The position numbers and the translations under genes are program-made. DNA of 64,000 nt from Escherichia coli (lineage in GTDB: Bacteria > Pseudomonadota > Gammaproteobacteria > Enterobacterales > Enterobacteriaceae), in the NCBI RefSeq assembly GCF_041248615.1, contig NZ_CP158426.1; one strand, given 5' to 3'. The notes under the pieces were generated by a model. The model worked only from the letters and a program-made list of their open reading frames with translations, ran no database searches and was not told the DNA's origin. Below are positions 2,234-19,124 of the stretch, piece after piece. How positions within the stretch are numbered: position 1 is the stretch's first letter; the number at the start of each line of letters is the position of its first letter.

Positions 2234-5941
<3,708 letters not shown>

Positions 5942-5944
5942 CGC

Positions 5945-6664
5945 TTATTCCCATGCATGAGGCGCAAAAAGATAGCCTTTGTTACGCACAGTTTTAATGC
6001 GATAAGGTTCTGCGGCGTTATCGAGCAGTTTTTTTCTTAACCGCGAAATAGCCACGTCCACGCTACGATCCAGTCCGTCATAACTGACGCCGCGTAAATT
6101 TTTCAGCAATGCATCGCGGTCCATGATTTGCCCGGCATGGGTAGCTAATTCCCACAATAATTCGAAATCAGCTGTCGAGAGCGAGATTTCAGTGTTAGCC
6201 AGGGTGACTACGCGGTTGATGGGATCGATGGTCAACGTGCCGAAATGCAGGGCTTTGTAGGGAGTCAGAGACGTTTCCTGAAGACCTTTGGTCAGTGTGG
6301 CTTGCTCATTCTGACGCAAATGCAAACGTAAACGCGCTAGCAAAACAGCAGGGGGCGTCGTTTTGAGAATATAGTCGCAGGCACCCATTTCCAGTGCCAG
6401 GATGTGGTTCATATCGCTATCGAGAGAGGTTAGAAGAACAATCGGTCCAGACCACTTTGCGCGTAAATCACGACAAATGGTCATGCCGTCCTTGCCTGGT
6501 AGCATGATGTCGAGTAACACCAAATCCGGATTTTCTCGCAAAATAGTTTCTTCGGCCCGGTCGCCGCGCGGTTCCACGGTAACCTGCATATCATGTTTTG
6601 CCAGGTACGCAGCAATCAGTGAACCGACTTCCGCATCATCTTCCACAAATACGATAGTGTTCAT
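5945..6664 (-). CDS. rstA: Two-component response regulator RstA (OmpR family), 239 aa
   Basis: Track ORF 259 aa; start placed at internal MNTIVFVEDD (complement ATG 6662-6664) giving 239 aa receiver + winged-helix domain. Confidence 0.9.
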   Translation of the reverse strand: MNTIVFVEDDAEVGSLIAAYLAKHDMQVTVEPRGDRAEETILRENPDLVLLDIMLPGKDGMTICRDLRAKWSGPIVLLTSLDSDMNHILALEMGACDYILKTTPPAVLLARLRLHLRQNEQATLTKGLQETSLTPYKALHFGTLTIDPINRVVTLANTEISLSTADFELLWELATHAGQIMDRDALLKNLRGVSYDGLDRSVDVAISRLRKKLLDNAAEPYRIKTVRNKGYLFAPHAWE

Positions 6665-14910: not shown

Positions 14911-15321
14911 GCTTGTCCCCGTTTTTTCTTCCTTTGCTAATAATAATGTCTTTTTCGCTCCGTCATCATAACGAAAATCAAACCGCTCAGGTAAAGAAGT
15001 GAAAATATTTTGAGTTAATTCTTAAGCTATGATACAAATCAGGCGTGTTCAACTACCGAGGACAATTATCATCCGCGATGACGAGAAGCAACACTGCGGA
15101 TAATTGTAATATTATGGACAATTTGTTCAGGACGTTATTTTCTACATTTACCCATCTTCGTACCTCATCCACTATCTTGCTCGTAGGTGAGCAGCACTGG
15201 CGCAACGCGCTTTAGTCCTTTCTTCTGCTTAAGCTTGCGCTATGCGCGGGGCTTGACCACTTTACTTTGGTTTCGCTGAATTAAGCGAAAATTAAAATAA
15301 TTCTCTTGCAGGAGAAGGACA

Positions 15322-16008: not shown

Positions 16009-16050
16009 ACGCTGCCCGCGCTGTCGGGCAGCGTTTGAACATTATTTTTG
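16009..16050. terminator. Hairpin plus T-run between convergent mdtI and ydgD
   Basis: ACGCTGCCCG/CGGGCAGCGT 10-bp stem followed by TTGAACATTATTTTT. Confidence 0.6.
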
Positions 16051-16863
16051 CGACAGTTGATCCAGCCTGTCGCGAAAACCGGTAACAGAAATGGCCCGGT
16101 TATCGGCGCGCCAGCGATCTTTCGCGGCAGGAGCCGAACTTTGCACCCCAATTAATTGCCAGCCGTCATCGGTATGCAACATCAGAGGCGAACCGCTGTC
16201 ACCTGGCAAGGTATCGCACTGATGTGACATCACCGACGTTTGCGCCCAGCCAGTCACTTCACAGTTTTGATGACTGTACAACGTATCGAGATGATCTTCA
16301 GGGTATCCCGCCTGAGTCACTTTACGACCTGCTGCTTTTAATGCGGCGGTAAGCGCGGCTTTATCTCCCTCAAATAACGGCAACGGTGTAATGCCAGAAG
16401 GGGGATTACGTAGCACAATCAAACCGAAGTCCCACGGCGCAGCTGCGGGAGGAACAATCCAACCATCCCCATCTGCTTTTAACCGCTTTCCCAGTGTCGG
16501 GTCAACGCGGCCTTCTATGTCGTGGATCTCATAGCGCCAAAGACCTTTATTTGACACAAAACGCAGCGCCACCGCTTTATCGGCTTTACCCTTTGGCGGC
16601 GTCAATAAACAGTGTCCTGCCGTTAATGCCAGATTGGGTGCGATCAGCGTCGCCGTACATAAATTGCCGCTGGCCGTTTCCAGTTGGCCAACCGCATCCC
16701 ACGGTGATTGGGTCGTGTCATTCACTGGCACACGATCATCATGACCAAAAAACAGGGTGCTGACCTCATCGTTTGCCGATTTGGCAACGTCTGGTTTATC
16801 TGCAAACACAAAAGCAGACGTCAAACTAATTGCACCCAACACTACAGCAATGGTTGTACGCAT
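16042..16863 (-). CDS. ydgD: Secreted trypsin-like serine peptidase (S1 family), 273 aa
   Basis: Track ORF 273 aa with signal peptide, TAGHC histidine motif and GDSGSP serine motif. Confidence 0.85.
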
Positions 16864-16962
16864 ATCACACTCTGGTGGGTAATTATGATTATTAAAAGCA
16901 AACCCTCATAAATACTATAGACGGGACGGGATGAAAGTGGGAGTAAAATCAGATAACTACGA

Positions 16963-17046
16963 TCAGGAAAGATAAAAACGGGCGGCAATCAGTGCGCATA
17001 AAATAAGGATGATAAGAATGAACTCAAAGCGATAACGGCCCACCAT
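16963..17046 (-). CDS. ydgU: 27-aa hydrophobic small protein MVGRYRFEFILIILILCALIAARFYLS
   Basis: Manual translation; GGAGGG RBS 5 nt upstream of ATG; position between ydgD and asr matches my recollection of the K-12 small protein YdgU, identity not verified. Confidence 0.45.
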   Translation of the reverse strand: MVGRYRFEFILIILILCALIAARFYLS

Positions 17047-17138
17047 ACTACCCTCCGCTAAAGGCGGTGCTAAACGTTATCCGCTTAGCACCGTAATTTT
17101 CAGGCGCGAGGGGGCGCGCCAGCATTACTATTGATAAC

Positions 17139-17447
17139 TTACGCTGCGGGTTGTGCAGCAGGTTTTGCCGGTTGCTGATGGCTGTGTTTCTTGGCGTGTT
17201 TCTTCGCTGCCTGCGCTTTTTGTTCAGGAGCTTTCTGTTCAGCTTTGGCATTTTTATGATGCTTTTTAGCCGCCTGCGCTTTCTGGGCAGGTGCTGCTTT
17301 ATGCTGTTTTTTATGATGTGTGGTTTTCGCCGGCGCTGCTTTGGTGGTCGTCGCAGTCGGAGCAGGTGTGGTCGCAGTCTCTGCAGCAAAGGCAGCAGAA
17401 GACAGACCCATAGCAGCGGCAACAACCAGAGCTAATACTTTTTTCAT
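17139..17447 (-). CDS. asr: Acid shock protein, 102 aa, Ala/Lys/His-rich low-complexity periplasmic protein
   Basis: Track ORF 111 aa; start placed at [21 protein letters not shown] (complement ATG 17445-17447) giving signal peptide + KAQAAKKH repeats. Confidence 0.85.
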
Positions 17448-17829
17448 TGTCATACCCTCAATTTGTTTTTTCATTTAACCCCACTGCGGGGCCGTTGAAA
17501 TAACTATATCCCTGGGAATGGCAGACTTCCGTGAGTGGTTGGTTTCAGCGTGTAACGATATGTACAAACGCTGAATAAATTACAGCGTTGATAATAACGT
17601 ATTGTGACTTAAGGGAAATTTAGCTACCAATAATAGTAGTCTTGATCAGGTTAACTATTTTACTACTTACAAAGCGGTAGAATAACTGCGCATCAGTAAT
17701 AAATGACACACAGCAAAATGAATCCGTTTATTTGGGTACTTATAATCCTGATGACACTAGATGCGCTGCGGGAATTGGCTGGCGCTTCGTCTATTTTAGG
17801 ATGGCTATTAACGTTGGTTTGAGCAGGCA

Positions 17830-17871
17830 ATAAGTCCGGATGGGTATTTACCGCAGTCCGGACTTATTTTT
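17830..17871 (+). terminator. Plus-strand intrinsic terminator abutting the ynfM stop codon
   Basis: Perfect 11-bp stem ATAAGTCCGGA/TCCGGACTTAT with 16-nt loop followed by TTTT; orientation is plus although no annotated plus-strand gene lies upstream. Confidence 0.5.
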
Positions 17872-19124
17872 CAGGCGTGCAGACGACGATGCAAACGCGT
17901 CCCGACCAGCAGAGCAATGACCAGCATCAGAGCAATAAATGCGCCGACGCCGTTCCAGCCATAGTTATGCCAGAAAACACCACCCAGCGTCCCGGCAATA
18001 CTCGACCCCAGATAGTAACTGAACAGATACAGCGAGGAGGCCTGGCCTTTAGCGCGTTTTGCGCGGGGGCCGATCCAGCTGCTGGCAACGGAGTGGGCTG
18101 CGAAGAATCCGGCTGAGAAGAATAACATTCCGGCAAAGATCAGCCACAGCGAGCTAAATAAGGTCATCAGTAAACCAAACAGCATAACCCCCGTCGAAAA
18201 CAACATCACCGGACCGCGCCCATAGCGGGTGGTCATGGTTCCGGCTTTGGGTGAGCTCCATGTACCGGTCAAATAAGCCAGCGATAATAAGCCAACCACG
18301 GCCTGGCTGACATGCCAGGGGGAGAGCATCAACCGATAGCCGATGTAATTAAACAGCGTGACGAACGACCCCATCAGCAAAAAGCCTTCTGCGAACAATA
18401 ACGGTAATCCCCGGTCACGCCAGTGCAGACGAAAGTTGATAAACAACGTCTTAGGTCGCAGCGAAGTCGGGCGAAAATGGCGTGATTCAGGGAGGATTTT
18501 CCAGAACATTAACGCCGAGGCCAGCGCGAAACAACCGATTGCCGCCAGCGCAATTCGCCAGTTGAAAAAGTCCGTGAAGACACCGCTAATTAAGCGTCCG
18601 CTCATGCCGCCAATTGAGTTGCCGCTGATATACAACCCCATCGAAAAGGCCACGAAACTGGGGTGGATTTCCTCGCTAAGATAAGTCATGCCAACAGCTG
18701 CTACGCCACTTAACGAAAGCCCAATCAAGGCGCGCATAATCAAAATGCCGTGCCAGCTGGTCATCATTGTCGAAAGTAACGTACAAATGGAGGCCAACAG
18801 TAGCGCCGTGACCATCACTGGTTTGCGACCAATGGCATCGGATAACGGGCCAGTAAACAGCAAACCGATAGCCAACATCGCCGTGGAAATGGACAGTGAA
18901 ATACTACTGTTCGCGGGCGTTAAGCCAAACTCCTGCGAAAGCACCGGAAGGATAGGTTGCACACAATAGAGAAGTGCGAAGGTTGCCAGTCCGGCAGAGA
19001 ACAGCGCCAGGGTGACGCGCATAAATTGCGGCGTACCGCGTTTAATAAATTGATTTGGCTGAGAAATGCTTTGCTTGTCAGTGTCGCTTGCCGGAGCGCC
19101 ATCAACAGTTGTAGTACGGCTCAC
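17871..19124 (-). CDS. ynfM: MFS transporter, 417 aa
   Basis: Track ORF 417 aa, 12-TM MFS-like; synteny. Confidence 0.88.
   Translation of the reverse strand: MSRTTTVDGAPASDTDKQSISQPNQFIKRGTPQFMRVTLALFSAGLATFALLYCVQPILPVLSQEFGLTPANSSISLSISTAMLAIGLLFTGPLSDAIGRKPVMVTALLLASICTLLSTMMTSWHGILIMRALIGLSLSGVAAVGMTYLSEEIHPSFVAFSMGLYISGNSIGGMSGRLISGVFTDFFNWRIALAAIGCFALASALMFWKILPESRHFRPTSLRPKTLFINFRLHWRDRGLPLLFAEGFLLMGSFVTLFNYIGYRLMLSPWHVSQAVVGLLSLAYLTGTWSSPKAGTMTTRYGRGPVMLFSTGVMLFGLLMTLFSSLWLIFAGMLFFSAGFFAAHSVASSWIGPRAKRAKGQASSLYLFSYYLGSSIAGTLGGVFWHNYGWNGVGAFIALMLVIALLVGTRLHRRLHA

Follow-up and report, generated by a model that had tools for sequence, protein, structure and literature searches.

A 27-codon open reading frame (ORF) located between asr and ydgD, in the 64,000-nucleotide stretch of Escherichia coli DNA analyzed here (contig NZ_CP158426.1, called 'the window' hereafter), is samT, formerly named ydgU, a member of the YdgU/SamT family and an already known gene. 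We consider, with a probability of about 0.9, that samT occupies the second place in an RstA-activated asr-samT operon, and that its product binds the sensor kinase RstB, closing a negative feedback loop. The features on which this reading is built are collected in Table 1.

Table 1. Positions of samT, of the elements that surround it and of the rstAB genes in the window
Feature	Position	Strand	Basis
samT (ydgU, b4601), coding sequence	16963..17046	-	ORF, translation, identity with K-12, NCBIfam match, conservation
Shine-Dalgarno sequence GGAGGG	17051..17056	-	sequence; 4 nt 5' of the samT ATG
Second intergenic hairpin, CGGUGCUAAGCG-GAUAA-CGUUUAGCACCG	17065..17093	-	predicted fold; 12-bp stem
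First intergenic hairpin, GGCGCG-CCCCCU-CGCGCC	17103..17120	-	predicted fold; just 3' of the asr stop codon
asr, acid-shock periplasmic protein, first gene of the asr-samT operon	17139..17447	-	RefSeq annotation, NCBIfam, Pfam
125-aa ORF, TTG start, +1 frame of asr, artefact	17048..17425	-	ORF listing
RstA box TACATATCGTTACA	17551..17564	-	exact match to TACATNTNGTTACA, asr promoter region
rstB, sensor kinase	4640..5941	-	NCBIfam RstB equivalog, 832.6 bits (cut-off 478); annotation
rstA, response regulator activating the asr-samT promoter	5945..6664	-	NCBIfam RstA equivalog, 485 bits (cut-off 330); annotation

Identity of the ORF and its start region

When ORFs were listed down to a floor of 20 amino acids, the interval between asr and ydgD (16042..16863, minus strand) was found to hold an ORF that starts with ATG, extends over 27 codons followed by TGA, and encodes MVGRYRFEFILIILILCALIAARFYLS. 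The first-pass annotation of this DNA had claimed a 27-codon ORF with a strong ribosome binding site (RBS) between these two genes, had proposed that it was YdgU, and had ascribed its absence from the ORF track to a 60-aa cutoff. The ORF is indeed present, on the minus strand, which had been left unstated, and the reason given for its omission fits the default ORF minimum of 60 aa. As for the proposed identity, it is upheld by comparison with K-12, by two NCBIfam models and by RefSeq annotation, as follows.

The product of K-12 b4601 is MVGRYRFEFILIILILCALITARFYLS, to which the window peptide is identical at 26 of 27 residues. The one difference is at residue 21, an alanine here and a threonine in K-12; a single synonymous change is found in addition. 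The upstream RBS is the same in both strains, and so are the two intergenic hairpins, apart from one loop base. Locus, gene length and operon are likewise shared with the K-12 gene (b4601; NF052476; PMC13425233), as are the RstA box 5' of asr and the proximity of rstAB. In the MG1655 annotation, ydgU (b4601) occupies the same position as the window ORF. The peptide was matched by NCBIfam models NF052476, small_YdgU (70.3 bits for a cut-off of 24) and NF011341 (74.5 bits for a cut-off of 66), its residues 1 to 27 aligning with profile positions 1 to 27, that is, over the full length of the YdgU/SamT equivalog; no Pfam model was matched by the 27-aa peptide. All sampled E. coli genomes but one carry a RefSeq coding sequence at the ORF site, named either 'hypothetical protein' or 'small membrane protein YdgU', and the one genome devoid of it is the strain interrupted by IS2 described below. 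The window peptide also has the hallmarks of the family, namely a length of 26 to 27 residues, a basic N-terminus of the form M-x-x-R-Y-x-F-E, one hydrophobic helix and a conserved Cys17; the residues R4, Y5, F7, E8, C17 and F24 are all present. The position is that of the family as well: same strand, 3' of asr, 5' of ydgD, and preceded by its own Shine-Dalgarno sequence.

Upstream of samT, the minus strand reads ...GCGGAGGGTAGTATGGTG. GGAGGG (17056..17051) is followed by the spacer TAGT (17050..17047) and then by the ATG (17046..17044), so that 4 nt separate the ATG from GGAGGG, and 5 nt separate it from the GGAGG core. The GGAGGG announced by the first-pass annotation was therefore found, and its spacing, described there as ideal, lies on the short side of the good range. 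By its sequence, this Shine-Dalgarno element is a strong one.

Two other small ORFs of the window were noted. Between asr and ynfM, on the plus strand, a 39-aa hydrophobic ORF (17703..17822) encodes MTHSKMNPFIWVLIILMTLDALRELAGASSILGWLLTLV; its RefSeq entries differ between strains, one having a 23-aa hypothetical protein and a second one a 39-aa 'KPN_01571 family protein'. This ORF is another candidate small membrane protein hidden by the 60-aa cut-off. The second, at 15045..15215 on the plus strand, 5' of mdtJ, is annotated differently by the two sources, as the 56-aa 'protein YdgV' in RefSeq and as the 33-aa MdtU in K-12. Translation of MdtU is reported to control mdtJI expression (PMC10746267).

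Conservation and selection

A 701-bp segment of the window is 100% identical to E. coli strain CFSAN018748, and a match to the samT region was obtained in 5422 of 5426 complete genomes of this species. A broader comparison was carried out on 80 loci from species-representative genomes, spanning Escherichia, Citrobacter, Kosakonia, Kluyvera, Buttiauxella, Cedecea, Erwinia, Pantoea and Mixta. These loci were anchored on ydgD, and samT orthologues were located by tblastn of the peptide in the ydgD flanks. In 78 of the 80 loci, the peptide is encoded just 5' of ydgD and in the same orientation. Among these samT-bearing loci, asr lies upstream in 74 and ydgD downstream in all 78. The ORF measures 26 to 27 codons, with three exceptions, two loci having 25 codons and one having 29; the start codon is ATG in 75. 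GGAG or a similar purine-rich core was present 4 to 9 nt 5' of the start in each of the 75 distinct orthologous upstream sequences.

The first-pass annotation had designated the frame and RBS in other Enterobacteriaceae as the place to look, together with possible frameshifts or stops in close relatives. The counts above speak for conservation of both elements, and the frame proved to be intact at the loci of all six other Escherichia species, and at loci out to Erwiniaceae.

The pattern of substitutions was then considered. Codon-position entropies, computed on 73 distinct nucleotide sequences, were 0.84, 0.34 and 1.32 for the first, second and third position, respectively, the third being the most variable. 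The pooled pN/pS ratio was 0.34 in frame, compared to 1.08 and 1.94 in the shifted frames. Stops were encountered in most sequences in four of the five alternative frames, and in about half of them in the +2 frame. At the protein level, among 57 distinct orthologues, E8 and C17 are invariant, while R4, Y5, F7, L11, I15 and F24 are nearly so, and the usual type of substitution replaces one hydrophobic residue by another. Position 21 is an alanine in 40 of these proteins and a threonine in 17, which indicates that both E. coli alleles are natural variants; the A21 form of the window strain would be expected to behave like the T21 SamT of K-12.

An ORF of this size is unremarkable by itself, since 54 ORFs of at least 20 aa were listed in the surrounding 3 kb, and samT might be considered as a chance ORF lying in the 3' untranslated and terminator region of asr, with no product. 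It is conservation that lifts samT above chance: frame, length, start codon and Shine-Dalgarno sequence are kept from Escherichia to Erwiniaceae, variation peaks at third codon positions, and both ribosome profiling and tagging have been published (PMC10746267, PMC11429745). Cross-species conservation, substitution pattern and published expression data together refute a chance origin, whose probability we regard as negligible. On these comparisons, samT behaves as a real gene under purifying selection, from Escherichia to Erwiniaceae.

The same tests were informative for the 125-aa ORF that overlaps asr. It crosses the asr stop codon and both hairpins, and it ends at a TAG placed between the Shine-Dalgarno sequence and the ATG of samT. 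For seven Escherichia sequences, pN/pS was 0.16 when read in the asr frame, compared to 1.45 in the +1 frame. The latter is free of stops over 117 to 128 codons in Escherichia and over 100 to 105 codons in two Citrobacter loci. Most other genera have only 35 to 94 open codons in this +1 frame, two outliers reaching 107 and 111, while the frame of asr is open throughout. When asr codons were shuffled, the +1 frame was fully open in 103 of 5000 trials (2%). The openness of this frame is mildly unusual, yet it provides no evidence of coding. No Pfam or NCBIfam family was matched by the 125-aa product, and the ORF is unannotated in the RefSeq records examined. Given the pN/pS of 1.45, the frame broken in most genera beyond Escherichia and Citrobacter and the lack of a family match, we reject the 125-aa ORF as a real overlapping gene, in agreement with the first-pass annotation, which had called this minus-strand ORF an artefact.

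Expression and proposed function in the RstA circuit

The product of the first gene of the operon, Asr, is matched by the NCBIfam model acid_shock_Asr (99.1 bits) and by the Pfam model Asr. The RstA box consensus, TACATNTNGTTACA, is reported in the literature. It has only one exact match in the window, 117 nt 5' of the asr ATG. With up to two mismatches, and with the core TACA-N4-GTTACA, a box situated 110 to 128 nt 5' of asr was seen in 72 of the 78 loci that carry samT, the most frequent distance being 118 nt; the background level, for up to two mismatches, was 4 of 1560 windows drawn from the same loci. In two Franconibacter loci devoid of asr, the box is present at a comparable distance 5' of samT. 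The genes rstA and rstB are both intact in the window, and full-length relative to their equivalog models. SamT shares with kinase feedback inhibitors as a class its transcription by its own two-component system, as judged by an RstA box that is exact and conserved, and by the published dependence on RstA (PMC13425233).

A body of published work, carried out in K-12, bears on this gene. In a 2026 Nucleic Acids Research paper, ydgU was renamed samT and the asr-samT operon was described; induction of both genes at pH 5 depended on RstA (PMC13425233). When samT alone was supplied in trans, from a heterologous locus, negative feedback on the asr promoter was restored, and this feedback was lost in rstA D52A, rstA D52E and rstB mutants (PMC13425233). 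In a two-hybrid assay, T18-SamT gave a strong signal with T25-RstB, and a weaker one with PhoQ and EnvZ (PMC13425233). By ribosome profiling, ydgU was third among the genes induced at pH 4.4, with a log2 fold change of 9.22, and it was placed in the asr transcription unit (PMC10746267). Under Mg2+ limitation, induction of ydgU was found to be PhoQ-dependent and driven by the region 5' of asr, promoter activity directly 5' of ydgU being negligible (PMC11429745). In the same study, GFP-YdgU was located at the cell periphery, and neither deletion nor overexpression of ydgU resulted in a growth phenotype under low Mg2+ (PMC11429745). The mechanism linking SamT to RstB is as reported by one laboratory, from genetics and from a two-hybrid assay with overproduced fusions, in K-12.

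Taken together, the circuit would operate as follows. At acid pH, or at low Mg2+ where PhoQP would raise rstAB, phosphorylated RstA would bind the box 5' of asr. Those transcripts that read beyond both hairpins 3' of asr would carry samT, which would be translated from its own strong Shine-Dalgarno sequence into a 27-residue peptide, spanning the inner membrane once with its N-terminus in the cytoplasm. SamT would then bind RstB, probably by means of its transmembrane segment, and lower the phosphotransfer to RstA; this negative feedback would follow the design of MgrB on PhoQ.

The spacer between asr and samT was examined for structures. Its predicted fold has a minimum free energy of -39.6 kcal/mol (z = -2.64) and contains the two hairpins of Table 1. 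The first recurs in other Escherichia, and one Citrobacter locus has it too. The second ends 18 nt before the samT ATG, and its tail, CCUUUAGC, is a weak U-tract in E. coli. A search for perfect stems detected a hairpin at this second position in about 65 of 79 loci. Its shape in Buttiauxella and Erwiniaceae is that of a canonical terminator, AAACACCCGG...CCGGGUGUUUCUUU and also AAACACCCGG-loop-CCGGGTGTTTCTTT, leading directly into GGAG. In the window, a simple promoter and terminator scan of 16700..17800 called no minus-strand terminator and no sigma-70 promoter-like site, which indicates that the E. coli hairpin 5' of samT does not amount to a textbook terminator. An Rfam scan of 16700..17900 (E <= 1) returned no RNA family match, so that no sRNA, riboswitch or antisense RNA of a known type takes part. 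Partial termination at the hairpin that precedes the RBS may set the ratio of Asr to SamT, SamT being the minor product.

A short ORF with a strong RBS, carried on the 3' part of the asr transcript, adjoining hairpins and lying 5' of ydgD, could also be a leader peptide or upstream ORF, in which translation, rather than the product, controls ydgD expression or the stability of the asr mRNA. We rejected this reading because selection bears on the amino acids (pN/pS of 0.34, with residues invariant across two families) and because SamT works in trans (PMC13425233); moreover, the 99-nt gap to ydgD holds no overlapping structure. A role as leader peptide is therefore very unlikely.

Even less likely is a relationship with type I toxins in the style of Hok, Ibs, Ldr or DinQ, by which SamT would depolarize the membrane under stress. 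SamT does resemble these peptides in being very short, hydrophobic, single-helical and stress-induced. However, its overexpression was reported to be harmless, with a negligible effect on growth, unlike that of DinQ in the same study (PMC11429745). No antisense RNA or other family is found by Rfam in 16700..17900, and samT is a single-copy core gene with fixed synteny. Membership in the type I toxins was accordingly discarded, on the RNA scan and the overexpression data.

The operon-encoded feedback inhibitor remains our preferred reading, and SamT may then be compared with two known systems. MgrB, a 47-aa inner-membrane feedback inhibitor of PhoQ, shares with SamT the logic of the circuit, each being a small single-pass membrane protein whose transcription is driven by a two-component system and which restrains the kinase of that system (PMC13425233). 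SamT is 20 residues shorter than MgrB, with almost nothing outside the membrane, and BLASTP of SamT against MgrB gave no alignment at E <= 100. MgrB has a periplasmic tail with conserved cysteines, whereas the single conserved Cys of SamT is inside the helix; mgrB is monocistronic, unlike samT, which is second in its operon. On sequence grounds, SamT is an analogue of MgrB and not a member of its family. The second system is UgtS-UgtL of Salmonella, a pair of small proteins that modulates PhoQ: as with asr-samT, one operon encodes a positive and a negative modulator of the system by which it is transcribed (PMC13425233). The difference is that UgtS antagonizes UgtL, whereas the actions of Asr and SamT are independent (PMC13425233).

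Exceptional loci and the linkage to ydgD

Some loci depart from the common arrangement. In Franconibacter pulveris (locus L021, 2691..2899) and F. helveticus (L023, 2707..2898), the asr ORF is absent, while a 25-codon samT and its Shine-Dalgarno sequence are intact. The RstA box is found 128 and 111 nt 5' of samT in these two species, and a -10-like TATAGT is kept as well. The Franconibacter loci thus have the appearance of a natural asr deletion that left samT under the asr promoter. That box and samT were kept when asr was lost fits a role of SamT linked with RstA signalling, and not with Asr.

In Intestinirhabdus alba (L011, about 2790..2880), asr is present, and the sequence at the samT site is GGAGGGGTATTC-ACG-CAA-CAT-CGG-CGT-TTT-AAG: ACG stands in place of the start codon, and the otherwise invariant E8 is replaced by a lysine. 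By these substitutions, this samT copy is likely to be a pseudogene. Neither asr nor samT is found in Tenebrionibacter. In Buttiauxella warmboldiae, asr was lost and the ATG of samT is replaced by ATA, which is directly preceded by a GTG in the same frame. Within E. coli, the sole interruption of samT among the 5422 genomes with a match is an IS2 inserted at about codon 19 in strain ESBL_DR28 (NZ_CP067250.1; L084, 2586..3990). Mangrovibacter (L067, 1763..2767; L068, 1748..2769) has two asr-like genes flanking samT, the first on its upstream side and the second on the ydgD side; the second lies between samT and ydgD and accounts for a gap of approximately 750 nt between them.

In most of the 78 samT-bearing loci, samT is placed 97 to 120 nt 5' of ydgD, on the same strand. 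In the window, the spacer (16864..16962, minus strand) is 99 nt long, and its degree of conservation between genera is unusual. Over 42 distinct spacers, conservation of the motif TTTTACTCCC.CTTT-N8-CCCGTCTATAGT reaches 90% or more, and the ydgD leader AATAATCATAATT..CCCAC.CAGAGNGTGATATG recurs from Escherichia to Mixta. An 11-bp direct repeat, TTTTACTCCCA / CTTTCATCCCG, is also present in the spacer, directly 5' of a TATAGT -10-like hexamer that has no good -35. Such a combination of repeat and TATAGT is the layout that would be expected for the site of an OmpR/PhoB-family activator.

The tight linkage of samT and ydgD (78 of 80 loci) is left unexplained by the RstB model. It could mean that SamT mainly serves ydgD, which encodes a secreted trypsin-like peptidase, either as a membrane partner or regulator of YdgD or within an asr-samT-ydgD acid-response unit, the effect on RstB being secondary or derived from overexpression. 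The short and regular distance is consistent with such a role, as is the fact that the simple scan detected no intrinsic terminator 3' of samT on the minus strand; in addition, deletion of ydgD was reported to affect acid resistance (PMC13339887), and the two-hybrid assay is somewhat promiscuous (PMC13425233). Against it, samT alone complements the feedback from a heterologous locus, in a manner that needs RstB-RstA phosphotransfer (PMC13425233), and the conserved TATAGT-containing motif of the spacer resembles a promoter belonging to ydgD itself. The linkage was moreover established on loci found via ydgD, and so within genomes that carry this gene. We therefore hold a main role in ydgD function to be unlikely, though less so than the leader peptide.

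A more speculative proposal, to which we lend limited credence, concerns both the hairpin and the linkage. The terminator-like hairpin, conserved from Escherichia to Pantoea and extended by a U-rich tail as far as the samT Shine-Dalgarno sequence, might be a tunable attenuator that sets the ratio of Asr, an abundant chaperone, to SamT, a feedback peptide of low dose. The almost universal adjacency of samT and ydgD, with its conserved spacer motif, might reflect that the periplasmic peptidase YdgD is functionally connected with SamT or with RstBA signalling. Neither the attenuator hairpin nor the samT-ydgD link is mentioned in the 2026 paper (PMC13425233).

The gene studied here was already known, as b4601 and from curated HMMs, and it has been described since 2026 as a feedback brake on the RstB-RstA acid response. 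Its analysis illustrates that a genuine 27-codon gene hidden by ORF-length cut-offs can be recovered from raw sequence, and that a longer, spurious ORF can be dismissed. Finally, the co-conservation of the RstA box, the RBS and the peptide across two bacterial families, together with the Franconibacter loci in which the promoter drives samT directly after the loss of asr, brings modest support to the published model, in which SamT would restrain the kinase of the system that activates its own operon.
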